DNA of 64,000 nt from an uncultured Gemmatimonadota bacterium (GTDB taxonomy: Bacteria; Gemmatimonadota; Gemmatimonadetes; Palauibacterales; Palauibacteraceae). Location of the stretch: positions 4,207 through 68,206 of the forward strand of contig CAZDZJ010000118.1 in assembly GCA_964509895.1 (NCBI GenBank), in the 5' to 3' direction. Each line of letters begins with the position of its first letter. Position 1 is the stretch's first letter. Of this stretch, positions 2,188 to 28,946 are shown in pieces. A program made the translations under genes and the position numbers. Below the pieces are notes generated by a model that did no database searches, was not told the DNA's origin, and worked only from the letters and a program-made list of their open reading frames with translations.

Positions 2188-3720
2188 ATGTCCATGTGGG
2201 TTGGGTCGGCCTCGGTGATGTCGGCGGCGGTGATGGGACTCGACGTGCGGCCCGTAAGTGTCGAGGTGTCACTGACGAAGGGGACGCCGATCATCCAGAT
2301 CGTCGGGCTCGCGCAAAGCGCCGTCCGCGAGGGCCGCGAGCGGATCCGGGCCGCGGCGGCGCAGCTGGGTCTGCACGTCCCCGGGTTGCGCATCACGGTG
2401 AACCTGGCGCCGGCGGACCTTCCCAAGACGGGGGCCGCGCTGGATCTGCCGATCATGCTCGGCATCCTGTGCGCGAAGGGCGACCTCGCCCAGGAGACCC
2501 TCCGGGGCACGCTGGCCGTGGGCGAACTCGGACTCGACGGGTCGCTGCGCTCCATACGCGGCGCCCTGCCGATCGCCCTCTTCGCCGCCGCGAGTCCTCA
2601 CGTCTCGCGCCTCCTCCTCCCCGCCGCCAACCTGCGGGAAGCGTCGGCCGCGGAGGGGATCGCCCTGGGCGGGTCGGAGTCTCTGACCCATGTCCTCGCC
2701 GCCCTGAAGCACGGGTCCGGACGGCGCGCCCCGTTGGCGCTGCTGCGTCCCGTCCCTCGAAGCACGGACGACGGCAGGCCCGAGGACGGCGGGTTCGACC
2801 TTTGCGCCGTAAAGGGACAGCCGGTCGCGAAGCGGGCCCTCGAGATCGCGGCAGCGGGCGGTCACAACCTGCTCCTCTCCGGGTGCCCCGGCTCCGGCAA
2901 GACGAGTCTCGCCCGCTGTCTCCCCGGCCTCCTTCCGGCCCTCGACATCCGGGAGGCCGTGGACGTGACGGCGATCCACAGCGTCGCGGGCCTCCTGGCC
3001 GATGGCTCCGGGCTCAGGCGCGCCCGGCCTTTCCGGGCGCCGCACCATTCCATCAGCGAGGCCGGGCTCATCGGCGGAGGAAGTCGTCCACGGCCGGGCG
3101 AGGTGTCGCTCGCGCATCACGGCGTGCTCTTCCTGGATGAACTCCCGGAGTTCGGCCGCCGCACGCTGGAGGCACTGCGCCAGCCCATCGAGGAAGGGCA
3201 GGTGCGCATCGTCCGCGCGGCGGGGTCGGCGAGCTTTCCGGCCGAATTCACGCTGGTGGCCGCGATGAACCCCTGTCCCTGCGGCTTCATGGGCGTGGCG
3301 GGCCGCTGCCGCTGCCCTTTGGAATCCGTGCGGCGTTACCGCCGGCGCGTGAGCGGGCCGCTCCTCGACCGGATCGACATGCTCGTCGACGTGCCCGCGG
3401 TCCCGTGGGAGCAGCTCGCGGACCCCGCACCCGCGGAGACGAGCGAGGTCGTGCGCTCCCGCGTGTCGAGGGCGCGCGCCCTCGCCTCCCGCCGGCAGGG
3501 AACGACGAACGCGCGCCTCCCGCCCGCCCGTCTCGAAGAGGCGTGCCGGATCGACCGGGTCGGCCGCTCGCTGCTGAGGAAGGCCGTGACGCATCTCGAC
3601 CTCACGGCCCGCGGGTATCACCGCGCGCTTCGCGTCTCCCGGACGATCGCGGACCTCGAAGAGTGCGCCCGCATATCCGAGGAGCACGTCGCCGAGGCAA
3701 TTCGTTTCCGAGGATCCTAG
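2188..3720 (+). CDS. comM: YifB/ComM family Mg-chelatase-like AAA+ ATPase
   Basis: Lon-like N-terminus (ITVNLAPADLPKTG..LDLP), Walker A GCPGSGKT, PFRAPHHS, GEVSLAHHGVLFLDELPEF, AMNPCPCG, SGPLLDRID. Start position approximate (ATG 2188 or 2194). Confidence 0.92.
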   Translation: MSMWVGSASVMSAAVMGLDVRPVSVEVSLTKGTPIIQIVGLAQSAVREGRERIRAAAAQLGLHVPGLRITVNLAPADLPKTGAALDLPIMLGILCAKGDLAQETLRGTLAVGELGLDGSLRSIRGALPIALFAAASPHVSRLLLPAANLREASAAEGIALGGSESLTHVLAALKHGSGRRAPLALLRPVPRSTDDGRPEDGGFDLCAVKGQPVAKRALEIAAAGGHNLLLSGCPGSGKTSLARCLPGLLPALDIREAVDVTAIHSVAGLLADGSGLRRARPFRAPHHSISEAGLIGGGSRPRPGEVSLAHHGVLFLDELPEFGRRTLEALRQPIEEGQVRIVRAAGSASFPAEFTLVAAMNPCPCGFMGVAGRCRCPLESVRRYRRRVSGPLLDRIDMLVDVPAVPWEQLADPAPAETSEVVRSRVSRARALASRRQGTTNARLPPARLEEACRIDRVGRSLLRKAVTHLDLTARGYHRALRVSRTIADLEECARISEEHVAEAIRFRGS

Positions 3721-3824
3721 TGCAGTGTCGCAGAAATCCTCGAGACACCGAGAGTGCCGGGGCACCGCGGGGACGGATGCAGCGGCGCTCGAATGACCGC
3801 AGGATTTCTGCGACACTGCACTAG
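3717..3824. mobile_element. 108-bp MITE/REP-like element with perfect 24-bp terminal inverted repeats bounded by CTAG
   Basis: CTAGTGCAGTGTCGCAGAAATCCT (3717-3740) is the exact reverse complement of AGGATTTCTGCGACACTGCACTAG (3801-3824). The two CTAGs carry the stop codons of the convergent flanking genes. Confidence 0.7.
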
Positions 3825-4459
3825 TGTCGCGCGTCGGCCGGGAGTTCGGGACACGGGCCGGCCTCCACCGGCTGCGGGGCCGGCACGTTCCCCCGCCCGA
3901 GCGTCAGGAAGTTCGCGAGCAGCCGGTGCCCGCCCGCCGTCAGTACGGCTTCCGGATGGAACTGCACGCCCCACACGGGCCACGACGCGTGTTCGAGGGC
4001 CATCACCTCACCCTCTTCCGTGCGGGCCGTGACCAGGAGGCCGGCGCCGGGCGCCCCGGGGTCCACGATCAGCGAATGGTAGCGGGTGACTTCCAGTGGG
4101 GAGGGGAGGCCCGAGAAGAGTCCCCGCCCCTCGTGAGAGATCGCCGAAAGACGACCGTGCATCGGACGCCGAGCCCGGACGACGCGTCCACCGGTCGCCG
4201 CAGCGATACACTGGTGACCGAGACAGACGCCGAGAATCGGGATCTCCGCGCCCACCTCGCGCACCACCTGGACGGAGGCTCCGGCTTCGCCCGGCGTGCA
4301 GGGACCGGGCGAGATGACGATGTGCGAGAAGCCTTCGCCCCGGAGGGTTCCCGGATGCACGGCGTCGTTGCGCCGCACGCGCACGGTCTCCCCAAGTTCC
4401 TCGAGGTACCGGGCGAGGTTGAAGACGAACGAATCGTAGTTGTCGATGAGGAGGATCAT
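3821..4459 (-). CDS. pabA: Aminodeoxychorismate/anthranilate synthase component II (class I glutamine amidotransferase, PabA/TrpG)
   Basis: MILLIDNYDSFVFNL, IVISPGPCTP, ILGVCLGHQ (catalytic Cys), RYHSL, GVQFHPE (His-Glu). PabA versus TrpG cannot be told apart by eye. Confidence 0.9.
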   Translation of the reverse strand: MILLIDNYDSFVFNLARYLEELGETVRVRRNDAVHPGTLRGEGFSHIVISPGPCTPGEAGASVQVVREVGAEIPILGVCLGHQCIAAATGGRVVRARRPMHGRLSAISHEGRGLFSGLPSPLEVTRYHSLIVDPGAPGAGLLVTARTEEGEVMALEHASWPVWGVQFHPEAVLTAGGHRLLANFLTLGRGNVPAPQPVEAGPCPELPADARH

Positions 4460-5051
4460 GGCAGCCGCAGGATATGTCCCCCCCGACGTCAGGTCGAGGC
4501 TCTTCGCGGCCGTCCTCCTTCCCTCCGCGGTGTGCGAGGATCTGGCGCGCGCGACCGCCGCTCTCCGGGCTCTGGAAGGGGTGCGGCCGGTGCGGACGGA
4601 GCAGCTCCACCTCACGCTGCGCTTCATCGGCGAGGTCGACCGGGCTCGCGAGAGGCCTCTCGCGCGCGGGATCGCTGCCGTGGCGGCGGCCGTGTCGAGC
4701 TTCCCGATCCGCCTTCGCGGTGCAGGCGCCTTCCCTTCGCACCGGCGCGCTCGCGTCCTGTGGGTCGGAGTCGAGCAGAGTTCCGCGCTCGCCGCTCTCC
4801 AGGCGTCCGTGGAAGCTGCCGTGGTCCGGGCCGGCGTGGCTCCCGACCCGCGTCCCTTCCGCCCGCACGTGACGGTGGGACGAATCCGCCGCCCCCGGCC
4901 GCCCGTAGGTCTGGCGGGCGCCGTTGCCGGGGTCCGCTTCGAGACGACCGTGGACGTCCGTGGCGTGACCCTGATGCGGAGCGTGCTCGATCCAGGCGGG
5001 GCACGGCACACCCAGGTTGCCGCCTGTCCGCTCGCGGAGGGGTCCCGGTGA
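4458..5051 (+). CDS. thpR: RNA 2',3'-cyclic phosphodiesterase (2H phosphoesterase, former 2'-5' RNA ligase)
   Basis: RLFAAV, LHLTLRFIGE and FRPHVTVGR (two HxT motifs). The ATG at 4458 is preceded by GAGGAGG. Confidence 0.88.
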   Translation: MAAAGYVPPDVRSRLFAAVLLPSAVCEDLARATAALRALEGVRPVRTEQLHLTLRFIGEVDRARERPLARGIAAVAAAVSSFPIRLRGAGAFPSHRRARVLWVGVEQSSALAALQASVEAAVVRAGVAPDPRPFRPHVTVGRIRRPRPPVGLAGAVAGVRFETTVDVRGVTLMRSVLDPGGARHTQVAACPLAEGSR

Positions 5052-5064
5052 CGCCCGCGACGGA

Positions 5065-5079
5065 GCGACACTACACTAG
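5065..5079. repeat. Solo, degenerate copy of the terminal repeat of the 3717-3824 element
   Basis: GCGACACTACACTAG versus GCGACACTGCACTAG (3810-3824): 14/15 identical, ending in CTAG, in the thpR downstream intergenic region. Confidence 0.5.
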
Positions 5080-5130
5080 TGTACAGCAGGTTGGTTCTTT
5101 CCCCGATTCCGGTCGGAGGGGGTCGAAGAC

Positions 5131-5883
5131 ATGGGTATCTTCCGAAGACTGTTCAAGGGACTGGGCTTCCTCATCTTTCTCCTGATTCTGCTGGTCGCCG
5201 GCTGGATCTTCAGGGAGGAAATCGGAGCGTGGCTCGCGAACGTCGACGCGGATGACATCGTCGTCGAGGAGTCGGTGCCGGAATTCGGTCCCGCAGCCGC
5301 GGCTCAGGTGGACACGGCCCTGCGGGAGCTGGCGGCCGGCCGCGATCCGGGCGTCGCCGGGCCCGCCCGGAGCGAACCCGCCGCCGTCGATTCGGCCGCC
5401 GTCGAACCGACCGGGGAGTCTGCCGGCGGGGACGAGGCCGCCGCCGGCCCCGCGGCGGAGACGCGCTTCACCGAGACGGACCTTCAGAGCTACGTGCGCT
5501 ACCAGGTGATCCCTCGGCTGCCGGCCGGCGTGGGGGAACCCGCGCTCGAGCTGCGCGACTCGACCGTCGCCTTCTCCGTCATGCTCCACTTCACGCAGCT
5601 TCCGATCGCGGCGGACGCCGCCGCAACGCTCTCGAGGATGCTCGGCGACTCGGCCCGCGTGGCCGGGGAGGTCCGGCCGGAGGTCGGGGAGATCGGCGAA
5701 GGGCGCCTCGACCTCGTGAACCTCCGGGCGGGCGTCATCCCGGTGCCCCCGATGATGGTCGGCATGGCCGCACAGCAACTGGGGTTGCGCATGGACGGAG
5801 GAACCGTGCTCTTCGACATCCCCGCGAGCGTCATCGACGTCCGGGTGGAGAACGGGGAGATCGTCCTCGTCACGAGCCGTTAG
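5131..5883 (+). CDS. Membrane-anchored hypothetical protein
   Basis: N-terminal TM helix (LGFLIFLLILLVAGWIF), acidic Ala/Pro linker, then a folded C-terminal domain. Typical codon usage and SD GGAGGG. Confidence 0.7.
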   Translation: MGIFRRLFKGLGFLIFLLILLVAGWIFREEIGAWLANVDADDIVVEESVPEFGPAAAAQVDTALRELAAGRDPGVAGPARSEPAAVDSAAVEPTGESAGGDEAAAGPAAETRFTETDLQSYVRYQVIPRLPAGVGEPALELRDSTVAFSVMLHFTQLPIAADAAATLSRMLGDSARVAGEVRPEVGEIGEGRLDLVNLRAGVIPVPPMMVGMAAQQLGLRMDGGTVLFDIPASVIDVRVENGEIVLVTSR

Positions 5884-5943
5884 GGCCGCCCGCGACCAGG
5901 CCGGCGGCCCGCCCGTCAACCACACAAGCGGAGTCTCCCAGGC

Positions 5944-7434
5944 ATGGCCGAGAAGTTCCCCAACCATATCGCGGGCGAGTGGACCGCACCCGCCGGCGGC
6001 GCATACATCGAGAACCGAAACCCGGCCCGCACGTCGGACTTGATCGGCCTCTTCCCGGACACGGATGCGTCGGGGCTGGACGCCGCCGTGGCCTCCGCGC
6101 AGCGCGGCTTCGAGGCGTGGTCCCGCACGCCCGCGCCCGAGCGGGGGCTTGTGCTGAAGAAGGCCGGGGACCTGCTGACGCAGCACAAGGAGGACCTGGC
6201 GCGCACGGCTACGCGCGAGATGGGCAAGGTGCTCGACGAAACGCGCGGCGACGTCCAGGAGGCGATCGACACGGCCTACTACGCGGCCGTGGAGGGCCGG
6301 CGCCTCTTCGGACGCACCGCGCCCTCCGAACTGCGGAGCAAGTGGGCGATGTCGTTTCGGCGGCCCATCGGCGTGTTCGGGATCATCACGCCGTTCAACT
6401 TCCCGGTCGCGGTCCCGAGCTGGAAGATCTTCCCCGCCCTCCTGTGCGGGAACAGCATCATCTACAAGCCTTCCGAGGACGTGCCGCACAGTGCCCACCG
6501 CTTCGTCGAGATCCTGCTCGAGGCGGGGCTCCCGCCCGAGTGCGTGCAGCTGCTGCACGGACGGGGGGAGACCATCGGGCAGGCGATCGTCGAACACCCG
6601 GGCATTCCCGGGCTTTCCTTCACCGGATCCACGGAGACCGGCAGCCGGATCGGTGAGATCGCCGGGCGGATGCACAAGCGCCTTTCTCTCGAGATGGGCG
6701 GCAAGAACGCGCAGATCGTCATGTCCGATGCGGACCTCGATCTCGCCCTCGAAGGGGTTCTCTGGGGCGCTTTCGGAACGACGGGGCAGCGCTGTACCGC
6801 GACGAGCCGCCTCCTCCTGCAGAGCGACATCCACGACGAGTTCGCGGAACGGCTGTGCTACGAGGCGCGCTCTCTCCGGCTCGGGGACGGACTGCAGGCC
6901 GGCGTCGATGTGGGTCCGCTCATCCACGAGGACGCACGCGAGAAGTGCAAACGCTACGTGGCGGTCGCGCGTGACGAGGGCGCCACGGTCGCGACGGGGG
7001 GTGGACGCCCGACGGAGAGCGGACTCGCCGACGGCTGGTTTTTCGAACCGACGGTCCTCACCGGCGTCGAGAGGGGGCACCGGACCGCGTGTGAAGAGAT
7101 CTTCGGCCCGGTGCTCTCCGTCATCCGCTTCGACACGCTCGAGGAGGCCTTCGAGATCAACAACGAAGTGCCGTACGGGTTGTCCTCATCGATCTACACG
7201 CAGGATGTGTCATCCTCCTTCCGGGCCGTGGAAGAACTCGACAACGGCATTACCTACGTGAACGCGCCGACCATCGGTGCCGAAGCCCACCTCCCGTTCG
7301 GTGGCGTCAAGAGCACGGGGAACGGACACCGCGAAGGCGGGTGGGAAGTCTATGAGTTCTACACGGAGACGAAGGTGGCGTACGTCGACTACAGCGGCTC
7401 CCTGCAGCGCGCGCAGATCGATGTCGATTGGTGA
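5944..7434 (+). CDS. NAD(P)-dependent aldehyde dehydrogenase
   Basis: ITPFNFP, FTGSTETG, LEMGGKN (Glu), GQRCTA (catalytic Cys), EEIFGP, PFGGVK.STG.G.REGG. Confidence 0.95.
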   Translation: MAEKFPNHIAGEWTAPAGGAYIENRNPARTSDLIGLFPDTDASGLDAAVASAQRGFEAWSRTPAPERGLVLKKAGDLLTQHKEDLARTATREMGKVLDETRGDVQEAIDTAYYAAVEGRRLFGRTAPSELRSKWAMSFRRPIGVFGIITPFNFPVAVPSWKIFPALLCGNSIIYKPSEDVPHSAHRFVEILLEAGLPPECVQLLHGRGETIGQAIVEHPGIPGLSFTGSTETGSRIGEIAGRMHKRLSLEMGGKNAQIVMSDADLDLALEGVLWGAFGTTGQRCTATSRLLLQSDIHDEFAERLCYEARSLRLGDGLQAGVDVGPLIHEDAREKCKRYVAVARDEGATVATGGGRPTESGLADGWFFEPTVLTGVERGHRTACEEIFGPVLSVIRFDTLEEAFEINNEVPYGLSSSIYTQDVSSSFRAVEELDNGITYVNAPTIGAEAHLPFGGVKSTGNGHREGGWEVYEFYTETKVAYVDYSGSLQRAQIDVDW

Positions 7435-7549
7435 GACGGGGGCGGTGAGACGCCGTTGAGATGCCGCCGTACATCTCCGGGTGTGGGGCCGGACGCCGGC
7501 CCGCGCGCGGCGACGTCGATCACCGGCTCGTGCAACAGGGAAGGGTGGC

Positions 7550-8374
7550 ATGGAGGACAGACCGGCTGAGAGAGCCGATTCCGAGGCGAAGGAGACGGTA
7601 GGGGAGGGCGCCGCCACGCGCCGGGGCGTCCGCAGGTTCCGGGCGCCCACGACGCGGGCTCGCCGCAGTCGCGACGCGTCCGTCGGCCGGTGGATGTGGG
7701 AGTGGACGAAGTCGATCTTCATCGCCCTCGTGCTGTTTCTCTTCGTCCGCACCTTCGTGGTGGAAGCCTTCCAGATCCCGACCGCCTCGATGGAGAACAC
7801 GCTCCTCATCGGAGATTTCCTCCTCGTCAACAAGATGGTGTATGGAGCCGAGATCCCCGGGACCGAACTGGAGTTGCCGGCGTTCGGCGAGCCGTCGCGG
7901 GGTGACGTCATCGTGTTCGAGCCGCCCGAATCCGCCGAGCAGCCGCCGCGCACGAACTACGTGAAGCGGATCGTCGGGATGCCCGGGGACACGCTGCGCA
8001 TGCGCCGGGGAAGGCTCTTCGTGAACAACGCTCCCTTCGAGGAGCCCTATGTGAAGGCCGCGTCGAACTTCCCCGACGCTCCGAGCCCGAAGTTCGCGTG
8101 GCAGCGCCGGTTCCTGACCGATCGCGCGCGCCGCTCCGGCACCGTGACGACCCGGAACAACTGGGGACCGCTCGTCGTGCCGGAGGACAGCTATTTCGTC
8201 ATGGGGGACAACCGGTCGAACTCCGAGGATTCCCGCTACTGGGGGTTTGTTCCGAGAGATGCGATCCGCGGGCGGCCCTTCCTCGTGTACTACTCGTACG
8301 ATCGGGAGCCGAGGGGTTCCTGGTCGTGGCTCACCGAGATCCGCTGGGACCGGATTCTGCGCGGCGTCGACTGA
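7550..8374 (+). CDS. lepB: Signal peptidase I
   Basis: TM segment, then FQIPTASMENTL (Ser), GDFLLVNK, YVKRIVGMPGD (Lys), YFVMGDNRSNSEDSRYWG. Confidence 0.93.
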   Translation: MEDRPAERADSEAKETVGEGAATRRGVRRFRAPTTRARRSRDASVGRWMWEWTKSIFIALVLFLFVRTFVVEAFQIPTASMENTLLIGDFLLVNKMVYGAEIPGTELELPAFGEPSRGDVIVFEPPESAEQPPRTNYVKRIVGMPGDTLRMRRGRLFVNNAPFEEPYVKAASNFPDAPSPKFAWQRRFLTDRARRSGTVTTRNNWGPLVVPEDSYFVMGDNRSNSEDSRYWGFVPRDAIRGRPFLVYYSYDREPRGSWSWLTEIRWDRILRGVD

Positions 8375-8386
8375 GGGCCGTCGGCA

Positions 8387-9181
8387 GTGGTTCGCCTTAT
8401 TGAACGGTACCTGGCGGACATCGGTCGCGAGAGGCTCCTCGAGCCGGAAGACGAGGTGGAACTCGCGCGCCGATGTCGGGCCGGCGACGAGGCGGCGCGG
8501 CGCAGGCTCGTAAGCGCCAACCTCCGCTTCGTCGTGTCCGTCGCTCGCTACTACCGGGGCCGGGGCGTCCCGTTCGCCGACCTCGTGAACGAAGGGAACC
8601 TGGGGCTCGTGCGCGCCGCCGACCGTTTCGATCCGGAGCGTGGCGTCCGCTTCATCAGCTACGCACACTACTGGGTGCGGCGAGCGATGGCCCGTGCCGT
8701 TGACGAGCAGGGCGAACGCCTGCTGCCCGGAGGCTCCGCCACGCAGCGTGTCTCTCTGGACGAGCCGGCTCCGGGGGCCGGCTGCACCTTCGAGGAGTTG
8801 CTGCCCGACGAGCAGACGCCCGAGCCGGGAGCCGGGCTGATTCGAGAACGGCTGCGCAGGGCCATCGAGGGGAGTCTGGCCGAGCTGCCGGCCCTCGAAT
8901 CGGAGGCGGTTCGCCGCTACTTCGGGCTGGGGTTCGAGTGCCCGCAGACGCTGAGCCAGATCTCGCTGGCGCTCGACGTGTCACGGGAGCGGGCGCGGCA
9001 GCTCAAGGACCGTGGCCTCTCGCGACTGCGCGCGGGCGCCGAAGGGTCCGGGCTCGTGCGCTTCGTGAATGACGGAGCTCCGCGGGCCGGCAGGCCCCCC
9101 CGCGGCCGCGCGTCGCGCGCACACCCGGCCCGCGAAGACGTTCTTTCGCTCGCGATTGACTTCATGCGAGGGGCTGAATAG
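8387..9181 (+). CDS. Sigma-70 family RNA polymerase sigma factor (RpoD/RpoS-like regions 1.2, 2 and 4; region 3 largely missing)
   Basis: YLADIGRERLLEPEDEVELA (1.2), ANLRFVVSVAR..Y..DLVNEGNLGLVRAADRFDPERG.RFISYA (region 2), TLSQI...DVSRERARQL (region 4 HTH). Confidence 0.88.
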   Translation: MVRLIERYLADIGRERLLEPEDEVELARRCRAGDEAARRRLVSANLRFVVSVARYYRGRGVPFADLVNEGNLGLVRAADRFDPERGVRFISYAHYWVRRAMARAVDEQGERLLPGGSATQRVSLDEPAPGAGCTFEELLPDEQTPEPGAGLIRERLRRAIEGSLAELPALESEAVRRYFGLGFECPQTLSQISLALDVSRERARQLKDRGLSRLRAGAEGSGLVRFVNDGAPRAGRPPRGRASRAHPAREDVLSLAIDFMRGAE

Positions 9182-9184
9182 CTT
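9156..9184 (+). promoter_or_regulatory. Sigma-70 promoter for the rplM operon
   Basis: TTGACT (9156-9161), 17-nt spacer, TAGCTT (9179-9184). Confidence 0.65.
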
Positions 9185-9213
9185 CACGGGCTATCATTTT
9201 CACGCGCTCGGCA

Positions 9214-9237: not shown

Positions 9238-9253
9238 GAGGTAGACAGAACGA

Positions 9254-10146: not shown

Positions 10147-11169
10147 ATGGGCGTCGAGTTGCAGGACCTCCTGAAGGCGGGCGTACACTTCGGGCACCAG
10201 ACACATCGCTGGAACCCGAAGATGCGGAAATACATCTTCGCCGAGTGCGGCGGGATCTACCTCATCGACCTCAAGAAGACGCAGCGGGAGCTCGGGCGGG
10301 CACACGAGTTGGTGCGTCAGACGGTCGTCGGCGGCAAGTCGGTGCTCTTCGTGTGCACGAAGCCGCAGCTCGCCCGCGTCGTGCGAGAGGAGGCCGAGCG
10401 CTGCAGTTCGTTCTATGTCACGGAACGGTGGCTGGGCGGGATGCTCACGAACTTCCAGACGATCAAGAAGAACATCGCTCGCCTGAAGGAACTCGAGCGG
10501 GGCGTCGAGGAAGGGGCGTTCGAGTATTACACGAAGAAGGAGCGGCTGCTCCTCGAGCGCGAGCGCGAGAAGCTGGACCGTTATCTGTCCGGCATCAAGG
10601 AGATGACGCGCCTCCCCGGGCTCGTGTTCGTGGTGGATTCCACCCGCGAGGAGATCGCGGTGCGCGAGGCGAACCGCCTCGGCATCCCGGTCGTTGCGAT
10701 CGCGGACACGAACGCGGATCCCGACCTCCTCACCATCGCCATCGCGGGCAACGATGACGCGATTCGCTCGGTCTCCCTGATCACGCGTTCGGTGGCGGAC
10801 GTCGTGGAGGCGGCGCGTCGCGAGATCCCCGAGGCGGGGCGGGAAGAGGCCGAGTCCCAGGCGTACACGTATTCGAGCGACGCCGGAGGGGTCGCCGAGG
10901 CCGCGGCAGGCTCTCGACGACGAAGGCCGCGGCGAAAGCCCCGCCCCGAAGTCATCGCGCAGCGACTGCATCACCCGGCCGTGATCGAGGGCGCCGACGG
11001 TGAAGCCGACGCCGTCGACGGCGATGCGACGGCGGAGGCGGCCGACGATGAAGCAGAGGCCGAGGACGCGAAGGCCGAGGTGGCCGACAACCCGGAGCCC
11101 GCGGCGGACGCCGGATCGGAGGGTGCCGAAGCGGCGGTTGTCGGAGAGGTGGGTTCAGAAGAGAAGTGA
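10147..11169 (+). CDS. rpsB: 30S ribosomal protein S2 with a long C-terminal extension
   Basis: [45 protein letters not shown]. Confidence 0.98.
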
Positions 11170-21946: not shown

Positions 21947-21988
21947 ACGCCCGGCGCCGCTCCGAGTGGCGCCGGGCGTTGGTTTTTT
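21947..21988 (+). terminator. Intrinsic terminator after tonB
   Basis: ACGCCCGGCGCCGC-TCCGA-GTGGCGCCGGGCGT followed by TGGTTTTTT. Confidence 0.8.
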
Positions 21989-22002
21989 GAGGCGAGCGTC
22001 CG

Positions 22003-22008
22003 TAGACT
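22003..22008 (+). promoter_or_regulatory. -10 element TAGACT placed for leaderless transcription of yggS
   Basis: TAGACT ends 7 nt before the GTG start at 22016, with no SD in between. Confidence 0.5.
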
Positions 22009-22015
22009 GTGCCGC

Positions 22016-22714
22016 GTGACGAACGATCAGGTCGAGGCCCGGCTGGCCCGAGTGATGGAGCGCATCGGGGCCGCGGCAAGGCGGGCCGGGCGGCATGCGG
22101 ACGACGTCGAGATCCTCCCGGTGACGAAGGGGCATCCGGCGCGGGCCATCGAGATCGTGGGGGGGCTCGGCGTGGGCCGGATCGGGGAGAACCGGGTTCC
22201 GGAGGCCGAGGCCAAGCGATCGGAGTTGGGGCCGACGTCCGGCGTCGCGTGGCATCTGATCGGCCGGCTGCAGCGCAACAAGGCGCGGCGGGCGGTCCGG
22301 CTGTTCGACGTCGTGGAGTCTGTCGACAGCGTGCGGCTGGCGGGAACGCTGAGCCGCATCGTCCGGGAGGAGGCGTGCGAGCCGGTCGAAGCGCTCGTGC
22401 AGGTGAACACGTCGGGTGAGGCCGCGAAGGCCGGGTTGGGTCCGGAGGTTGCACTCGACGCGGTGGCCGAAATCTGCGAACTGCCCGGTCTGCGCGTAGC
22501 CGGGCTGATGACCATGGCTCCGTTCACCGGGGACGAGGCCGTGCTCCGGCAGACGTTTCGTCGCGCGGCGCGTCTGCTGGGACGCTGTCGCTCGGAGATC
22601 CCGGCCTTCGGAGGCCGGACGCTCTCGATGGGGATGAGCAACGACTTCGAGATCGCGATCGAGGAGGGGAGTACGCGGGTGCGGCTCGGCACCGTGCTGC
22701 TGGGGGAGAGATGA
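22016..22714 (+). CDS. yggS: YggS/PLPBP pyridoxal-phosphate homeostasis protein
   Basis: ILPVTKGH (PLP Lys), IGENRVPEA..K, WHLIGRLQRNK, VQVNTSGE..KAG, GLMTMAP, LSMGMSNDFE.AIEEGST.VRLGT.L.G.R. Confidence 0.95.
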   Translation: MTNDQVEARLARVMERIGAAARRAGRHADDVEILPVTKGHPARAIEIVGGLGVGRIGENRVPEAEAKRSELGPTSGVAWHLIGRLQRNKARRAVRLFDVVESVDSVRLAGTLSRIVREEACEPVEALVQVNTSGEAAKAGLGPEVALDAVAEICELPGLRVAGLMTMAPFTGDEAVLRQTFRRAARLLGRCRSEIPAFGGRTLSMGMSNDFEIAIEEGSTRVRLGTVLLGER

Positions 22715-23337
22715 TCGATCTGACACCGCTGGATGTTCGGAAGAAGAGGGAGGACTTCAGGCGCACGGTGCGCGGGTACGATCCGGGCCAGGTCGATGCT
22801 TTCCTCGCGGTGGTGGCGGATCGTCTGGAGCGCTACGTGCGCGAACACGTGGTTCTCAGCGAACGGATCGGGCGGCAGGAGGAGCAGCTCGAAAGCTACC
22901 GGACTCGCGAGAGGGCCCTCAACGAAGCGCTTCTCGCCGCGCAGGAGTTGCGGGAGGAGGCCCGCCTCCAGTCCGAACGCGACGCGTCGGTGCGGGTCCG
23001 TGAGGCCGAAACGCGCGCGCACGCCGTTCTGGCCGACGCGGAGCAGGTCGTCCGCCTCTGCCACGAAAAGGTCGAGGACCTGAAGGCGACGCGAGGCCGC
23101 TTCCTCGCCTCCCTGCGGAAGCTGTTCGAACGTTTCGACGAGTATCTCGATTTTGAGGGTGAACGGTTCGGCGATGGGCCGGAAGACCTCGATCAGTTTG
23201 TCGAACGGTTGCGCCGGATCGGGGAAGACTCCCTCGAGGACGCCGCTGCCGAGCCTTCCGCCCCGCAGCCGGCCCACGAGCCCCCGCCCACGATTAGCCA
23301 GGTCGACGCCGGCGGTTCGGGCGCCGCGTCGACCTGA
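22711..23337 (+). CDS. divIVA: DivIVA domain-containing protein
   Basis: LTPLDVRKK.EDFRRTVRGYDPGQVDAFL (DivIVA N-terminal motif) followed by a coiled coil. Confidence 0.9.
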   Translation: MIDLTPLDVRKKREDFRRTVRGYDPGQVDAFLAVVADRLERYVREHVVLSERIGRQEEQLESYRTRERALNEALLAAQELREEARLQSERDASVRVREAETRAHAVLADAEQVVRLCHEKVEDLKATRGRFLASLRKLFERFDEYLDFEGERFGDGPEDLDQFVERLRRIGEDSLEDAAAEPSAPQPAHEPPPTISQVDAGGSGAAST

Positions 23338-23414
23338 CCGCAGCCCGGGGCTGCGCACGCCCGCCGTTCCGACGCCCGCGTCGATCATCCGGAAACACCA
23401 GATGGAGCACCCCC

Positions 23415-26400
23415 ATGGCCTACCGGCCAATACCGGATTCCGTCCGGGGACTGGAAGCCGAAGTCCTCGGGCGCTGGGAGAAAGAGAAGACCTTCGAGCA
23501 GAGTCTGGCGGCTCGGGCCGATGCGCCGGACTTCGTGTTCTACGAAGGACCGCCGACGGCGAATGCCAACCCGGGCGTGCACCATATCCTCGCGCGCACG
23601 ATCAAGGACACGGTGGGGCGGTACCGCACCATGTCCGGCTACCATGTCCCGCGTAAGGCCGGCTGGGATACACACGGGCTGCCCGTCGAACTCGAGGTCG
23701 AGCGCGCGCTCGGCATCTCCGGCAAGCCGGATATTGAGCATTACGGGGTCAGGAAGTTCAACGAGGCCTGCCGGAGCAACGTGTTCCGCTACCAGGACGA
23801 GTGGGAACGGCTGTCCCGCCACATCGGCTACTGGCTGGACTACGGCGATCCGTACGTCACCTGCTCACGGGAGTTCGTCGAGTCCGGCTGGTGGGCCCTC
23901 TCGGAGATAGAGAAGCGGGGGCTGCTGTACCGGGGATACAGAGTCCTCCCGACGTGTCCGCGCTGCGGCACCGGCCTCTCGAGCCACGAGGTTGCCCAGG
24001 GCTACCGGGACGTGACCGAGCCTGCCGTCACGATGAAATTCCACCTCGTCGACGACCCGGACGGCGCGCGGGTCCTGGGCTGGACCACGACGCCGTGGAC
24101 GCTTCCGGGCAACCTCGGTCTCGCCGTGGGGCCCGACATCTCCTATGCCCGCGTGCGCATCCTGCCGGAGGATGCGAACCGCGCGACGCCCCCGGGCCGG
24201 GCTCACGACGGGCCTGGCGGGGCTTCTCCCGGCGAAGTGCTCATCCTGGCTCGAGACCGCGTTGCCGAGGTCCTTCGCCACCCGTACGAGATCGAAGCGG
24301 AGGTGAGCGGGGCCGAACTCGCCGGGCGGAGCTACCACCCGCTCTTCCCGGGCGCGGTGGACGGCTCCCGCTCCGCCGCCGCGTGGACCGTGCTCCAGGC
24401 GGACTTCGTCACGGTCGATGAAGGCACGGGCGTTGTCCACACGGCCGTGATGTATGGAGAAGATGACTTCCGGCTGGGAGAGGCGGCCGGGCTGCCGATG
24501 CAGCACACGGTCGGGGAGGACGGACGTTTTCTGGGAACCGTTCCGGGCGGACTCGCCGGCATGCACGTGAAGGACAGAGCGACCGAACGCGCGATCCGCG
24601 ACTGGGCTGTGGCCCACGACCAGCTGTACCTGCGCGAGATGTACGAGCACAGCTACCCGCACTGCTGGCGGTGCGAAAGCGCGCTCCTCTACATGGCGCG
24701 GGATTCCTGGTACATCCGCACGACCTCGGTGCGGGACCGCCTGCTGGAGCACAACGCGTCCATCGACTGGCACCCGCCGGAAACGGGGTCCGGCCGCATG
24801 GGCGAGTGGCTGAAGAACAATGTGGACTGGGCGCTCTCCCGAGAGCGCTACTGGGGAACGCCGCTCCCGATCTGGCTCTGCTCCGAGGATGCCGGGCATC
24901 GGGAGGTGCTCGGGTCCTTCGCGGAACTGGGACGGCGGGTCGGTGGTCTTCCTGACGGCTTCGACCCGCATCGGCCGGAGATCGATGGCTACGAGTGGGA
25001 TTGCGCCGCCGACGCATGCCGCGGTCGCATGCGAAGGGTGCCCGAGGTCGCCGACGCGTGGTTCGACTCCGGTTCGATGCCGTTTGCCCAGTGGCACTAC
25101 CCGTTCGAGAACCGGGAGACCTTCGAGCGCTTCTTTCCGGCGGACTTCATCGCCGAAGGCGTCGACCAGACGCGCGGATGGTTCTATTCGCTTCTCGCGC
25201 TGTCCACCATCCTCTTCGACCGTGCCCCCTTCAGGGCCGTGATCGTCAACGACCAGGTGCTGGACGCCGAGGGGCGGAAGATGTCGAAGTCACGGGGCAA
25301 TGCGGTGGATCCGCGCGACGCGCTCGACACCTACGGGGCCGATGTCACGCGCTTCTACTTCCTCTCGGGGTCCAACCCGTGGGTGCCGAAGCGGTGGGAT
25401 CCGGCCGCGCTGCGCGAGACCGACCGCAAGCTGTTCGCGACGCTGCGCCACACCTACCGCTTCTTCGCCCTCTACGCCAACGAGGAGGGCTGGTCCCACA
25501 CGGAGCCCGGGGCGGCCCGCGTCGCCGGCCGAAGCGACCTCGACCGCTGGGTGCTCGCGCGCCTGGACGGGGTGGTCGTGCGGGTGGGAGAAGCGCTGGA
25601 GTCGTTCGATCTCACGGCGGGGGCCCGCGCCATCCAGGAATTCGTGCTCGACGATGTGTCGAACTGGTACGTGCGCCGCAGCCGCGACCGTTTCTGGGCG
25701 ACACAGCCGGGGACCGCCGCGGCGGGCGCCGACGCCTTCGCGACGCTGCACGAATGTCTCGCCACGACCGCGCGGCTGCTCGCCCCCTACGCGCCCTTCC
25801 TGTCCGACTGGCTGTACCGGGCGCTCACCGGTGAAGGCTCCGTCCACCTGGCGGGCTTTCCGGTCCCGGCGGGACGTTCCGAACCCGCACTGGAGGAGGC
25901 GATGGAGGATGTTCGACGCCTGGTGGCGCTGGGCCGCGCCGCGCGGGAAAAGGCGGGGGTCCGGATCCGCCAGCCTCTGCGTACCCTGCATGCCGTGCTG
26001 CCGGGGGGGCGCGCACTGGCCGACCCCATGGCGGCGCTCGTGATGGAGGAACTCAACGTAAAAAAGGTTGTGTCGCTGGGGGATAGCGAAGATCTTGTTC
26101 GGCTGTACGCGAAACCGCATTTCGGGGCGCTGGGTCCGAAGCACGGCGCACGTACGCCGGCGGTCGCGGCGGAGATCGGGAATCTGAATACGTTCGCGCT
26201 GAGCAGGCTCCGTGATGGCGAGCCGATCGAAATCAGGGTCGGCGGCGGTCGGGTCCGGGTGACGCCCGAAGACGTCGTGATTCGAGAGGAGACGCTCACG
26301 GATCTCGCCGTGGCCGCGGGCGATGGTTACCTCGCCGCGGTGGATACGGACATCGATGACGCGTTGCGCGCCGAAGGCTATGCGCGGGAGATCGTGAACC

Positions 26401-26651
26401 GCGTCCAGCGCCTTCGACGCGATGCCGGGTTCGAGGTCGCCGACCGCATCCGGCTCGGTGTGGCGGGTCCGGCGGGTCTGGAACGGGCGGTGTCGGCGCA
26501 CGAGGCCTACATCGCCGGCGAGACGCTCGCTGTGGAGGTGGAGACGGGATCGGCCCCGCTGGGGGCCCTGAGTACATCCGTAGTGAAGATCGATGACGCC
26601 GAAGTCCGTATCGGAATCGGCGAAGTCGGCGACGACGCTTGCAAAGCATGA
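23415..26651 (+). CDS. ileS: Isoleucine--tRNA ligase, type 2 (IleRS2)
   Basis: FYEGPPTAN..PGVHH, GWDTHGLPVE, WTTTPWTLPGN, DWALSRERYWG.PLP.W, WFDSGSMP, DFIAEGVDQTRGWFY, KMSKS, IleRS2-type C-terminus (EG.AREIVNRVQ.LR..AGFEV.DRI). Confidence 0.97.
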   Translation: MAYRPIPDSVRGLEAEVLGRWEKEKTFEQSLAARADAPDFVFYEGPPTANANPGVHHILARTIKDTVGRYRTMSGYHVPRKAGWDTHGLPVELEVERALGISGKPDIEHYGVRKFNEACRSNVFRYQDEWERLSRHIGYWLDYGDPYVTCSREFVESGWWALSEIEKRGLLYRGYRVLPTCPRCGTGLSSHEVAQGYRDVTEPAVTMKFHLVDDPDGARVLGWTTTPWTLPGNLGLAVGPDISYARVRILPEDANRATPPGRAHDGPGGASPGEVLILARDRVAEVLRHPYEIEAEVSGAELAGRSYHPLFPGAVDGSRSAAAWTVLQADFVTVDEGTGVVHTAVMYGEDDFRLGEAAGLPMQHTVGEDGRFLGTVPGGLAGMHVKDRATERAIRDWAVAHDQLYLREMYEHSYPHCWRCESALLYMARDSWYIRTTSVRDRLLEHNASIDWHPPETGSGRMGEWLKNNVDWALSRERYWGTPLPIWLCSEDAGHREVLGSFAELGRRVGGLPDGFDPHRPEIDGYEWDCAADACRGRMRRVPEVADAWFDSGSMPFAQWHYPFENRETFERFFPADFIAEGVDQTRGWFYSLLALSTILFDRAPFRAVIVNDQVLDAEGRKMSKSRGNAVDPRDALDTYGADVTRFYFLSGSNPWVPKRWDPAALRETDRKLFATLRHTYRFFALYANEEGWSHTEPGAARVAGRSDLDRWVLARLDGVVVRVGEALESFDLTAGARAIQEFVLDDVSNWYVRRSRDRFWATQPGTAAAGADAFATLHECLATTARLLAPYAPFLSDWLYRALTGEGSVHLAGFPVPAGRSEPALEEAMEDVRRLVALGRAAREKAGVRIRQPLRTLHAVLPGGRALADPMAALVMEELNVKKVVSLGDSEDLVRLYAKPHFGALGPKHGARTPAVAAEIGNLNTFALSRLRDGEPIEIRVGGGRVRVTPEDVVIREETLTDLAVAAGDGYLAAVDTDIDDALRAEGYAREIVNRVQRLRRDAGFEVADRIRLGVAGPAGLERAVSAHEAYIAGETLAVEVETGSAPLGALSTSVVKIDDAEVRIGIGEVGDDACKA

Positions 26652-27028
26652 ACGCGGAACAACGAAAACACATCGAGAAGAGGCTGCTGCAGGCGCGTTC
26701 GCGCGCAACGCGGGAACTCGGGCAGTATGACGACACGTTCACGAGCGCCCTGCAGGGTGCGGACAGCGACCTGGCCGCCTACAGCTTCCATATGGCGGAC
26801 CAGGGGACGGACGCCATGGAGCGCGAGAAGGCGTTCCTGTTCGCGAGCAAGGAGGGCCGGCTGCTCTACCATATCGACGAGGCGTTGCGGCGGCTCTATC
26901 GCAACCCGGAGCAGTTCGGGAGGTGCGAGCACTGCGGCGAGGAGATCGACTTCGAACGGCTCGACGCCCTTCCGCACGCACGGCTCTGCATCCGTTGCAA
27001 GGAAAGAGAAGAGACCGGTGCAGGCTGA
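26648..27028 (+). CDS. TraR/DksA family C4 zinc-finger transcription factor
   Basis: HMADQGTDAMERE, IDEAL.R, FGRCEHCGEEI...RL.ALP.ARLCIRCKE. Confidence 0.9.
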   Translation: MNAEQRKHIEKRLLQARSRATRELGQYDDTFTSALQGADSDLAAYSFHMADQGTDAMEREKAFLFASKEGRLLYHIDEALRRLYRNPEQFGRCEHCGEEIDFERLDALPHARLCIRCKEREETGAG

Positions 27029-27569
27029 ACCCGCGCCGCCGGCAAGAAACGACCTCGCCGCACGGCTCTGGCTGACCCTCGTGCCGATCGTGGTCATCCT
27101 CACGCTGGACATCGTGACCAAGGCGTGGGTCATGAACACGTTCGAGTTGTACGAGCAGACGCCCGTGATCGGCGATTTCTTCCGCTTCACGTATACGCAC
27201 AACCGGGGCGCCGCGTTCGGGCTCGACATCGGGGAACATTCCCGAATCTTCTTTCTCATCCTGTCCCTGGTCGCGCTCGGCATTCTCGGCGCCATCTACC
27301 GCGGCACGCCATCCTCGGACCGGCTGCGCGTCCTCGCCATCGCGCTCGTCTCCGCCGGCGCGCTGGGCAACATCTGGGACCGCATCCGGCTGGAAGCGGG
27401 GGTCGTCGACTTCCTCGACTTCGGCATCGGCACGAGCCGTTTTCCCATCTTCAATATCGCGGACTCCGCCGTGACGGTCGGTGCGGTGCTGCTGCTGATC
27501 TCGTTCTGGCTCGAGGGCCGGCGCGAGAGGGAGATGGCGGCCGTGTCGGCGGAGGCGACCCCCGAGTGA
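27018..27569 (+). CDS. lspA: Lipoprotein signal peptidase II
   Basis: LDIVTK, NRGAAFG, GALGNIWDRI, VVDFLD, FPIFNIADSAVTVG. Confidence 0.95.
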   Translation: MQAEPAPPARNDLAARLWLTLVPIVVILTLDIVTKAWVMNTFELYEQTPVIGDFFRFTYTHNRGAAFGLDIGEHSRIFFLILSLVALGILGAIYRGTPSSDRLRVLAIALVSAGALGNIWDRIRLEAGVVDFLDFGIGTSRFPIFNIADSAVTVGAVLLLISFWLEGRREREMAAVSAEATPE

Positions 27570-27570
27570 A

Positions 27571-28563
27571 GTGAGCCCGCGCGGATCCGGGGGGGAGGGT
27601 GCGGGCGAGCGGCGGCTCATCGAGATCAGCGAGGGTGAGGACGCGGCTCTCGAACGGCTCGACCGCCTGCTTGCCGACCGCCTCGCCCTGAGCCGGTCCC
27701 GGGTCGCGCAACTCATCTCCGGCGGCCGGGTGACCGTCAACGGACGGATCGTGCCGAAACGGTATCGCCCCCGGACAGGGGATCGGATCGGCATCGACCT
27801 GCCGCCCCCGGCTCCCACCCGGCTGGAGCCGGAAGACATCCCGGTCGAGATCCGCTACCAGGATGACGCCCTCGCGGTCGTGGAGAAACCGGGCGGGCTC
27901 GTCGTCCACCCCGCCCCGGGGCATCCGGGGGGGACGCTGGTGAACGCACTTCTCTTTCACCTCGGCGACCTGTCGAGCATCGGGGGGGACCGCCGGCCGG
28001 GCATCGTGCACCGGCTCGACAGGGACACGAGCGGACTCATGCTCGTCGCCAGGCGGGATGAAGCGCACCGCGCGCTCTCCGCCGCTCTCCGGCGGCGGGA
28101 GATCGAGCGCGGGTACGTCGCCGCGGCGTGGGGACACCTCGACGAGGAGCGCTTCGCGGTGGATCGCCCGATCGGGCGCGACCCGCGCGACCGGAAGCGG
28201 ATGGCGGTGCGGGAAGAGGGGCGGCCCGCACTGACGCATGTGAAGCGCCTGGAGCGCTGGAACGCGGCGGAATTGCTCGCGGTCCGGCTCGCCACGGGCA
28301 GAACGCACCAGATCCGGGTGCACCTCCGGTCGCTCGGACACCCGGTGGTCGCGGATCCCGTCTACGGGCCCGACTGGGAACGGGGGTTCGGCGGCGCGGG
28401 CGGCCGCTGGGCCGAAGTGCTTCGGCGCCGGGCCGGGCGACTCTTCCTGCACGCCGCGCATCTCGCGTTTGAGCACCCCGGGACCGGCGAAGTGATGTCC
28501 TTCGCCTCGCCGCTGCCCTCGCCGCTGATCGAGGCCGCGGAATGGGCCCGGCGCACCTCGTAA
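27571..28563 (+). CDS. RluA/RluD family pseudouridine synthase with N-terminal S4 domain
   Basis: RLDRLLA..L..SRSRV..LI..G.V.VNG, VVEKPGGLVVHPAPG, VHRLDRDTSG (catalytic Asp), TGRTHQIRVH, LFLHAA.L.F.HP. Confidence 0.93.
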   Translation: MSPRGSGGEGAGERRLIEISEGEDAALERLDRLLADRLALSRSRVAQLISGGRVTVNGRIVPKRYRPRTGDRIGIDLPPPAPTRLEPEDIPVEIRYQDDALAVVEKPGGLVVHPAPGHPGGTLVNALLFHLGDLSSIGGDRRPGIVHRLDRDTSGLMLVARRDEAHRALSAALRRREIERGYVAAAWGHLDEERFAVDRPIGRDPRDRKRMAVREEGRPALTHVKRLERWNAAELLAVRLATGRTHQIRVHLRSLGHPVVADPVYGPDWERGFGGAGGRWAEVLRRRAGRLFLHAAHLAFEHPGTGEVMSFASPLPSPLIEAAEWARRTS

Positions 28564-28623
28564 AGGATTCGGCGTGGGCGCGGACGGCGATGGCGCCTCC
28601 CCGGAGACGCGCCTTCGAGGTAG

Positions 28624-28652
28624 TTGACGCGTGTCGGAGGGACGTCTAGCGT
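28624..28652 (+). promoter_or_regulatory. Sigma-70 promoter giving a leaderless transcript
   Basis: TTGACG (28624-28629), 17-nt spacer, TAGCGT (28647-28652). The ATG at 28659 lies at the expected +1 distance. Confidence 0.6.
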
Positions 28653-28658
28653 CCCCGC

Positions 28659-28880
28659 ATGAACCAGGGAAGACGCGACCGCAAGAGGGGGGATGTCCCC
28701 GCCCGAGGCCTCAGGTTCGGCGTGGCCAACTACGTATCGTTCGCGCTCGGCCTCACGTCGATCGTCGCCGGATACGTGCTGCTCGACCGGGGGTCCGTGA
28801 CGGCCGCACCGCTCCTGCTCATCCTGGGCTACGCGGTGCTCCTGCCCGCCGGACTCATCCTCGGCTGGCGCCGCCTCTAG
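28659..28880 (+). CDS. Small two-TM membrane protein (DUF3098-like by eye)
   Basis: 73 aa: NYVSFALGLTSIVAGYVLL..GS.T.APLLLILGYAVLLPAGL. Confidence 0.65.
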   Translation: MNQGRRDRKRGDVPARGLRFGVANYVSFALGLTSIVAGYVLLDRGSVTAAPLLLILGYAVLLPAGLILGWRRL

Positions 28881-28946
28881 CAGGCCGTGGCAAGACCCCG
28901 CGTCAGCGCCGCTCGAACGCAGCGGGGTCTTGCCGCGGCCTGCTAG
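28877..28946. mobile_element. 70-bp MITE/REP-like element with 25-bp inverted repeats bounded by CTAG
   Basis: CTAGCAGGCCGTGGCAAGACCCCGC (28877-28901) pairs with GCGGGGTCTTGCCGCGGCCTGCTAG (28922-28946), 24/25 complementary. The left CTAG contains the upstream gene's stop codon. Confidence 0.6.

Follow-up and report, generated by a model that had tools for sequence, protein, structure and literature searches.

Two multi-copy CTAG-bounded miniature transposons in the genome of a sponge-associated Gemmatimonadota bacterium

Insertion sequences (IS) of the IS630 family are mobile elements. IS630 inserts at the TA within CTAG (Tenzen & Ohtsubo 1991, as cited in PMC2170065), and the family member ISY100 moves by cut-and-paste, with the TA duplicated (PMC2170065). 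In IS870 and ISMt1, a stop codon is provided by the TAG of the element's own CTAG target (Fournier et al. 1993, as cited in PMC13630536). Small derivatives of such elements are also described – the pneumococcal repeat unit (RUP) is a 107-bp MITE derived from IS630-Spn1 (Oggioni & Claverys 1999, reviewed in PMC2229807).

The 64,000 nucleotides of Gemmatimonadota DNA analysed here (the window) contain two CTAG-bounded palindromes, designated MITE-1 and MITE-2, which are the two top inverted repeats within it. Both had been pointed out in an initial annotation of the sequence, and are present as it described them. The two elements and the genes that adjoin them are:

3717–3824, no strand: MITE-1 (element 1), 108 bp including both flanking CTAGs, between the convergent ComM-like and GATase genes
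3717–3740, plus strand: left terminal inverted repeat of MITE-1, CTAGTGCAGTGTCGCAGAAATCCT
3801–3824, minus strand: right terminal inverted repeat of MITE-1, 100% complementary to 3717–3740
2053–3720, plus strand: ComM/YifB-like gene of the Mg-chelatase family, with its TAG stop (3718–3720) inside the left CTAG of MITE-1
ca. 3821–4459, minus strand: class-I glutamine amidotransferase (GATase) gene (Pfam GATase), with its TAG stop (3821–3823) inside the right CTAG of MITE-1
28877–28946, no strand: MITE-2 (element 2), 70 bp, CTAG-bounded, between a conserved 76-aa ORF and tRNA-Val
28650–28880, plus strand: conserved small ORF (76 aa, GC3 0.88), with its TAG stop (28878–28880) inside the left CTAG of MITE-2

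The inverted ends of MITE-1 are perfect over 24 bp, each starting with CTAG, while MITE-2 has arms of 25 bp with one mismatch, a loop of 20 nt, and ends that read CTAGCAGGCCGTGGCAAGACCCCGC. The predicted folding energies are −71.6 kcal/mol for MITE-1 and −58.2 kcal/mol for MITE-2, with z of about −9.8 relative to shuffled sequences for both. The elements are small and non-coding, and a tblastn search of the window for an IS630-type transposase gave a best E of 1.7, in agreement with the earlier statement that the window holds no transposase. The ComM-like gene matches Pfam Mg_chelatase, ChlI and Mg_chelatase_C, with the match reaching the last residues. The GATase orthologues of four relatives (L020, L021, L022 and L026; 185–216 aa) end at CTAG, and the orthologues of the small ORF called in three others (L023, L024 and L025) have 74 aa and an identical C-terminus.

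Both elements are present in many copies. Summed over contigs, the depth in four sponge metagenomes that hold the organism climbs from ca. 30x to 130–2900x exactly over 3717–3824 and 28877–28946, a copy-number estimate to which other organisms may contribute. In X1, MITE-2 is found in 30 contigs, with a summed depth of up to about 1480 versus 30. Numerous contigs of several kb, with the depth of the organism itself (22–34x), terminate inside MITE-1 or MITE-2, and loose ends with flanks that do not agree occur at 3717 and 3824 in MITE-1 and at 28877–28880 and 28943–28946 in MITE-2. The initial annotation had allowed that each element might be single-copy; the depth spikes and contig breaks in the metagenomes show them to be multi-copy.

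Comparison of orthologous loci revealed empty sites for MITE-1 (L022 and L026) and for MITE-2 (L023, L024 and L025). L022 and L026, both Candidatus Palauibacter (ComM 87–88% identical), have the window sequence minus MITE-1: CTAG occurs once at the site, and the ComM and GATase gene calls overlap by 4 nt, with the one CTAG acting as a double stop. L020 and L021 have a spacer of 24–38 nt here and not a shared CTAG; because these relatives differ, we infer from L022 and L026 what the site precisely looked like in the ancestor of the window lineage. MITE-2 is absent from the orthologous site in L023, L024, L025 and one X4 strain, and in the three former the stop of the small ORF directly abuts the right flank found in the window (TAG followed by CGTCGGTCCGC versus TAG followed by CGCCGGTCCGC). 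Empty sites with a single CTAG or a single TAG are found in L022, L026, L024 and L025, and CTAG stands at both ends of both elements, a pattern that fits a 2-bp duplication of TA and a 4-bp duplication of CTAG alike. Other copies are found at different loci in related species: one with MITE-1 ends is placed upstream of a start codon, at a distance of 4 nt (L021:507–571), and one of MITE-2 is in a 5' intergenic region (L025:11043–11113). A strain that is 98% identical (L019) has a diverged member of the MITE-1 family, inverted, at the same ComM/GATase CTAG.

MITE-1 and MITE-2 are thus multi-copy miniature transposons in the genome of a sponge-associated member of the Gemmatimonadota. Their copy number, their borders exactly at CTAG and the empty sites in relatives bear out the original proposal of non-autonomous mobile DNA. 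It is highly improbable that they are instead terminator or regulatory hairpins that arose in situ, or REPIN-like doublets of REPs moved by a RAYT (IS200/IS605-like). Although GC-rich intergenic hairpins between convergent genes would suit the former and the dimensions of MITE-2, with 25-bp arms on either side of a 20-nt loop, are REPIN-like, both elements are multi-copy with sharp CTAG borders and unrelated flanks, are cleanly present or absent in relatives, and have the target repeated at both ends. In REPs, which are associated with a RAYT gene, the imperfect palindrome contains a conserved head of the GTAG type, and REPs are not known to duplicate their target. For MITE-1 these possibilities are largely refuted by its ends, which equal those of IS630 elements.

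The source of the MITE-1 ends was apparent from a scan of the 20-mer CTAGTGCAGTGTCGCAGAAA against ca. 600 Gb of genomes and JGI metagenomes. Eighteen stretches were recovered, and 17 of these are ends of one type of IS – the terminal 20 nt of MITE-1 are identical, 20 of 20, to IS630-family ends in L001–L006 and L008–L018. The IS is complete in L011 and L018, with 1170 bp, CTAG at both ends, a perfect 16-bp terminal repeat and a single ORF of 361 aa. This ORF matches the NCBIfam model for IS630 family transposases (NF033545) at 270 bits, where the cutoff is 100, as well as Pfam DDE_3 and HTH domains, and its closest named relative is ISPsy32 (56% identity). An IS transposase with matching ends, which the initial annotation had proposed to look for, was therefore found for MITE-1, and it is of the IS630 type, not of the IS5, IS701 or IS1182 types that had been suggested; derivation of MITE-1 from these or from IS1380 was rejected, as its ends equal those of IS630 elements. 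Full-length matching IS were seen only in a Verrucomicrobiota MAG and in JGI metagenome contigs of unstated origin (ca. 57% GC). That they have a 20-nt end in common with a Gemmatimonadota genome suggests that one IS630 lineage has spread widely by horizontal transfer.

Very probably, then, MITE-1 is an internally deleted, IS630-derived MITE that was moved in trans into CTAG, MITE-2 behaves in a like manner, and target choice together with purifying selection explains their positions at stop codons. MITE-1 would be a non-coding remnant, through internal deletion, of an insertion sequence of the IS630/Tc1-mariner family, and its 16–24-bp ends would be binding sites for a DDE transposase of the IS630 type, provided in trans. 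The transposase would excise MITE-1 and paste it in at the TA within the palindromic CTAG, and the TA would be duplicated. Duplication of TA within CTAG means that both junctions read CTAG, and since CTAG has TAG on both strands, insertion into a stop CTAG restores the stop at both sides and does no harm. Before insertion, the site now at 3717–3824 would have been a CTAG that was the overlapping stop of two convergent genes. We infer mobilisation in trans, duplication of TA rather than of 4 bp, and the family to which MITE-2 belongs.

Stop codons lie in three of the four terminal CTAGs, those of the ComM-like gene, the GATase gene and the 76-aa ORF. The initial annotation had a TAG stop within the CTAG of both elements, which is borne out; the right CTAG of MITE-2 is no stop codon. 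CTAG is a rare sequence here. There are 12 sites in the window versus 62 expected from dinucleotide shuffles, and in 191 kb of Palauibacter DNA there are 49 sites versus ca. 560 expected from base composition, a more than tenfold depletion. Stops account for 25 of these 49 (51%), and they are the stops of long ORFs with high GC3. With CTAG so depleted, and roughly half of those that are left consisting of C plus a TAG stop, target choice and purifying selection would suffice for the placement observed: the elements are on TAG stops mainly because they insert into rare CTAGs, half of which are already stops. Two insertions at stops, when 51% of targets are stops, do not amount to enrichment, and the copies at L021:507–571 and L025:11043–11113 are off stop codons. 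Of the earlier idea that the elements insert at stop codons without damage to genes, the absence of damage stands – the neighbouring genes are intact – but no special mechanism directed at stops is needed. The case shows cleanly how a preference for CTAG of the IS630 type, in a genome purged of CTAG, funnels insertions onto TAG stops, where target duplication keeps them neutral, even at one CTAG common to two convergent genes.

Retention or preferential fixation at stops, with the hairpin acting as a bidirectional terminator or as a stabiliser of RNA 3' ends, was weighed against this and seems unlikely. The hairpins are very stable, have perfect or near-perfect arms, and start directly at the stops of convergent or tRNA-adjacent genes, and the ComM/GATase site is occupied in several strains, in L019 by a different, inverted member. 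Against a role of this kind, however, the stop insertions are no more than expected from the targets available, other copies lie away from stops, and relatives do without the elements. Neither hairpin is followed by a U-tract on either strand, and a canonical terminator-like site was not found; an intrinsic (Rho-independent) terminator was rejected on the lack of a U-tract and on the absence of the hairpins from orthologous sites. A search of the region 3500–5300 against Rfam 15 gave only two microRNA-precursor models, at 22–25 bits versus gathering thresholds of 91–100.

The two elements were at first taken for one family, but their ends are unrelated and they form two: the ends of MITE-2 have no clear similarity to those of MITE-1 or IS630, and no parent IS was found for it, the large collection scans having covered the MITE-1 end. 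MITE-2 is best viewed as a second family that behaves like MITE-1 and is most likely also of the IS630 type. It is possible, if rather doubtful, that MITE-2 alone comes from a family that duplicates 4 bp of CTAG or YTAR (IS5, IS1380, IS701 or IS1182 type), in which case two transposase superfamilies would have used the same CTAG target in the window. Its distinct ends and missing parent would fit such an origin, as would the precedent of MITEPsy1 in Pseudomonas syringae, which is thought to be derived from the IS5 family and duplicates CTAG (PMC3189936). Its size, hairpin form and behaviour, however, are those of MITE-1, and the two elements have a core in common at a near-equal offset from the right end. 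MITE-2 also begins with CA after CTAG, unlike IS1380 elements, which usually start with CC after the target, or IS5 elements, for which GG or GA is usual.

The cores are located as follows:

3780–3795, plus strand: core of MITE-1, 16 nt, CAGCGGCGCTCGAATG
28904–28919, plus strand: core of MITE-2, 16 nt, CAGCGCCGCTCGAACG

The match between them, 14 of 16 positions, was reported in the initial annotation and was confirmed. Comparing loop against loop, it is nominally non-random (p = 0.001 with random window segments, 0.0002 with shuffles), for an observation made post hoc; in a test over the whole window with two further mismatches allowed, it looks like chance. The MITE-2 core is conserved at 15 of 16 positions in the L025 copy, and the L019 family member has a diverged form of the MITE-1 core. 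We consider it improbable that the core is a real module, whether a subterminal site or a small structured RNA or DNA motif, that was exchanged between CTAG-targeting MITE families or kept independently by them; the elements might then be retained at overlapping convergent stops for a role such as setting 3' ends. In L019, that CTAG is occupied by another member of the family, in inverted orientation, which is consistent with retention of this kind.

Two other sites had been put forward as possible relatives:

5065–5079, minus strand: solo relic, reading CTAGTGTAGTGTCGC on the minus strand, of an end of the MITE-1/IS630 type; it lies downstream of a LigT-like gene
44587–44672, no strand: ordinary weak GC-rich hairpin, rejected as a candidate

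The first is indeed related, matching the MITE-1 terminal repeat at 14 of 15 positions. L020 has the motif at the orthologous location (GCGACACTGCGCTAG), L021 and L022 have it in a decayed state, and the solo end is an old relic. The second was rejected as a family member. Its fold is weak (z = −1.8), it has no match to the terminal repeats, and it is single-copy, with a flat depth of ca. 33x and a 20-kb X1 contig that passes straight through it.

In practice, annotation of Candidatus Palauibacter and of comparable uncultured genomes with high GC calls for masking hairpins of 70–170 bp as MITEs. Such MITEs break short-read assemblies – the contigs of this organism end in them – and can lengthen or shorten ORF calls at stops.

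The suggestion that these elements are an undescribed system did not hold up, as MITE-1 has IS630-family ends and the targeting of CTAG is known, which makes it a RUP-like MITE. The L011 element resembles IS630 of Shigella sonnei and the IS630/Tc1-mariner family in its length of 1170 bp, its 361-aa DDE transposase, its short terminal repeats and its CTAG boundaries, the classic IS630 target with TA duplicated; the window elements differ in having no transposase, and its match to MITE-1 is confined to the ends (20 nt). IS870 of Agrobacterium vitis and ISMt1 also have a CTAG target tied to stops, with the duplicated target supplying the TAG, but in IS870 this TAG ends the element's own transposase ORF, while here the rebuilt TAGs end host genes. 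MITEPsy1 is a 100-bp MITE with duplicated CTAG (or YTAA) at its borders, thought to come from the IS5-family ISPsy2 with a true 4-bp duplication (PMC3189936), whereas MITE-1 matches IS630 ends; MITE-2 could be of the MITEPsy1 type. The closest parallel is RUP. Like MITE-1, it is ca. 100 bp, non-coding, and has terminal inverted repeats that match an IS630-family element, and like both window elements it inserts at TA, has many intergenic copies and folds into a long hairpin. MITE-1 differs from RUP in its host (Gemmatimonadota, 69% GC), its unrelated sequence, its much longer, perfect arms (24 bp), its strict CTAG target, and in that all finds of the matching IS were in other organisms. MITE-1 and MITE-2 leave the current understanding of transposition unchanged, and are a clear instance, though an ordinary one, of transposon biology already known, that of RUP/IS630-like MITEs.

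The window, from a sponge-metagenome organism, has a GC content of 69%, and its ComM-like and RluA-like proteins are 79–89% identical to proteins named Candidatus Palauibacter (Gemmatimonadota). Its best two inverted repeats are MITE-1 and MITE-2, the CTAG-bounded palindromes reported in the initial annotation, which was largely right about them – both structure and coordinates were borne out. The end sequence of MITE-1 is CTAGTGCAGTGTCGC and that of MITE-2 is CTAGCAGGCCGTGGCAAG; the RNA folding energies are −71.6 and −58.2 kcal/mol, respectively (z ca. −9.8).

MITE-1, MITE-2 and the adjoining features of the window.
2053..3720, plus strand: ComM/YifB-like gene, with its TAG stop at the left edge of MITE-1
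3717–3824, 108 bp: MITE-1, with perfect 24-bp inverted ends, CTAGTGCAGTGTCGCAGAAATCCT
3821–3823, minus strand: TAG stop of the class-I glutamine amidotransferase (GATase) gene, at the right edge of MITE-1
28650..28880: conserved 76-aa ORF, on whose TAG MITE-2 begins
28877–28946, 70 bp: MITE-2, with 25-bp inverted ends, CTAGCAGGCCGTGGCAAGACCCCGC, and 1 mismatch
29031–29105: tRNA-Val, anticodon TAC, 84 nt downstream of MITE-2

MITE-1 fills exactly the space between the stop codons of the ComM/YifB-like gene and the GATase gene. Just 5' of the 76-aa ORF is a short hairpin with an unoccupied CTAG (GGGACG-TCTAG-CGTCCC, 28636–28654), which is conserved in the relatives L023 and L024 and, instead of marking a transposon footprint, may have a regulatory or 5'-UTR role.

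As a test for repeats, the contigs of four sponge metagenomes containing the window organism were aligned to the window. Summed contig depth rose from ca. 30x in the flanks to 130–2900x exactly across 3717–3824, and from ca. 30x to 400–1500x across 28877–28946. In one of the metagenomes, run X1, 30 contigs match MITE-1 and 30 match MITE-2, and a second full copy of MITE-2 lies inside one 9.4-kb contig. Several multi-kb contigs at host depth (22–34x) terminate within MITE-1 or MITE-2, and the unaligned contig flanks, which start at 3717, 3824, 28877–28880 and 28943–28946, are mutually discordant. Taken together, the depth jumps, contig breaks and discordant flanks are the signature of dispersed repeats ending at the CTAGs. 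Between 3767 and 3765, most of the other MITE-1 copies have an interior that is longer and differs from that of the window copy, so the window copy looks like a short deletion derivative; no variable positions inside MITE-1 were listed from the metagenome contigs, even at a low minimum share. A second, larger depth spike, at the tRNA-Val gene, is due to conservation across organisms, not to a repeat. Depth is also modestly increased (92 vs. ca. 33) at 48005–48671, within the gene at 47579–48709, where joints and short cross-matching contigs are numerous; the signal probably comes from a conserved or paralogous domain and not from a mobile element.

A search with the 20-nt end of MITE-1 in ca. 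600 Gb of reference genomes and JGI metagenomes returned 18 stretches, 17 of which are ends of one insertion sequence. A 20-mer match in Alcaligenaceae (L007) has an unrelated interior and was treated as chance. The insertion sequence is complete in two of the stretches, L011 and L018, where it measures 1170 bp, is bounded by CTAG on either side, carries a perfect terminal repeat of 16 bp, CTAGTGCAGTGTCGCA, and codes one ORF of 361 aa. This ORF scores 270 bits against the NCBIfam model "IS630 family transposase" (cutoff 100) and also matches Pfam DDE_3 and HTH domains; the closest named plasmid relative of the transposase is ISPsy32, with 56% identity. The relatives returned for P0001, the transposase in L011, all fall into one very large and widespread subfamily of IS630, and none of them is labelled Palauibacter. 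A 17-mer of MITE-1 had one match in viral contigs, without a transposase, and the 64-kb window contains no transposase of the IS630 type, in agreement with the initial annotation. IS630 targets the TA of CTAG (Tenzen & Ohtsubo 1991, as cited in PMC2170065), and in ISY100, another element of the family, TA is duplicated through cut-and-paste (PMC2170065). Ends shared with an IS630-family insertion sequence and location at the IS630 target identify MITE-1, by sequence, as a MITE of the IS630 lineage.

Orthologous loci in relatives of the window provide empty sites for both elements. L022 and L026 have a single CTAG at the ComM/GATase junction, where the two gene calls overlap by 4 nt (...GGACCCAG-CTAG-CGTCGCGCGG... 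in L022, ...GCGGACC-CTAG-TCCTG... in L026). The window without MITE-1 and one CTAG has the same layout, ...GGATC-CTAG-TGTCGCGCGT..., and two other relatives have a spacer of 24–38 nt at the junction. NCBI names the ComM protein on the L027 contig Candidatus Palauibacter polyketidifaciens. There the two genes are separated by an unrelated insert of 1.1 kb (3037–4172), which was considered as an IS630 element and rejected as not IS630; it contains a 94-aa stop-to-stop frame with a cysteine-rich product and a signal-peptide-like start (MKRFVPIALVVVAAFFF...). In L019, a strain that is 98% identical and comes from a neighbouring run accession, a diverged family-1 MITE is found inverted at the same CTAG (5067–5139), meaning that the site has been struck, or exchanged, more than once. 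Six of its first 24 nt differ, all within 30 nt of unique flank. Run X2 contains a second variant of the locus, and the L019 and X2 variants suggest that MITEs turn over within the population at this one site. The junction seems to be an insertion hot spot. A 65-bp family-1 copy in L021 lies 4 nt upstream of a start codon.

For MITE-2, sequence that matches the right flank in the window comes immediately after the stop of the small ORF in L023, L024 and L025 (CTAA, TTAG and CTAG), and a strain in run X4 also lacks the element. Dispersed in multiple copies, bounded by CTAG and absent from these sites in relatives, the palindromes are mobile elements, as had been proposed. L025 has its own family-2 copy elsewhere (11043–11113), with both ends decayed to CCAG. 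At 5711–9089 of L025, isoleucyl-tRNA synthetase is called at 578 aa, vs. 1078 aa in L023 and L024, and an unannotated 521-aa minus-strand ORF covers the missing part; the short synthetase may reflect an insertion or a problem of assembly or frameshift. An insertion sequence with matching ends, found for MITE-1, was not found for MITE-2 in viral contigs, where the MITE-2 end has no match. MITE-2 is most likely of the IS630 type, and its derivation from a family that duplicates a 4-bp CTAG is rather unlikely.

CTAG is scarce in this DNA – 12 sites in the window vs. 62 expected from dinucleotide shuffles, and 49 in 191 kb of Palauibacter DNA vs. ca. 560 expected from base composition. Of these 49, 25 coincide with stops of ORFs that are long and have a high GC3, so an element that seeks CTAG has about even odds of landing on a stop codon. 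Landing on a stop does no harm, since TAG is restored to the left and right of the element, and two cases do not amount to enrichment. Among nine ends of the parent insertion sequence in other organisms, just one is preceded by a long open frame. Older MITE copies in relatives read CCAG for CTAG (L021:568–571; L025:11043–11046 and 11110–11113). Very-short-patch repair has been proposed to cause change in this T-to-C direction, which may be the route by which CTAG was lost from Palauibacter genomes (depleted ca. tenfold).

One of two suggested relatives of the palindromes was upheld. The solo end at 5065–5079, which matches the MITE-1 end at 14 of 15 positions, is an old relic that occupies the corresponding position in L020 and is degraded in L021 and L022. 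A composite transposon at 3717–5079, formed by MITE-1 and the solo end and carrying the GATase and LigT genes, was rejected, since relatives without MITE-1 have the two genes and the solo end in the same positions. The looser palindrome at 44587–44672 was dropped as a family member (fold z = −1.8, flat depth, one contig spanning the whole palindrome).

For the shared 16-nt core, a lenient whole-window test was compatible with chance, and direct comparison of loop with loop gave a post hoc p = 0.001. The core, kept at 15 of 16 positions in the family-2 copy of L025, may be explained by common descent or a common site. That it is a relic of the 3' end of the transposase is a conjecture; a stop is kept 29 nt from the end in the window and L019 copies, vs. 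27 nt in L011, but a 1-nt indel difference between runs in the upstream consensus argues against coding, and the longer MITE-1 variant resembles a longer palindromic MITE.

No terminator-like site was found at MITE-1 or MITE-2, and 3500–5300, the region around MITE-1 scanned against Rfam, matches no family; a terminator role of the hairpins is possible but unsupported. The proposal of an undescribed system did not hold, as MITE-1 has the ends of an IS630-family insertion sequence and is of the RUP-like kind already known. Its relation to IS630 is like that of RUP to IS630-Spn1 in pneumococcus (PMC2229807).
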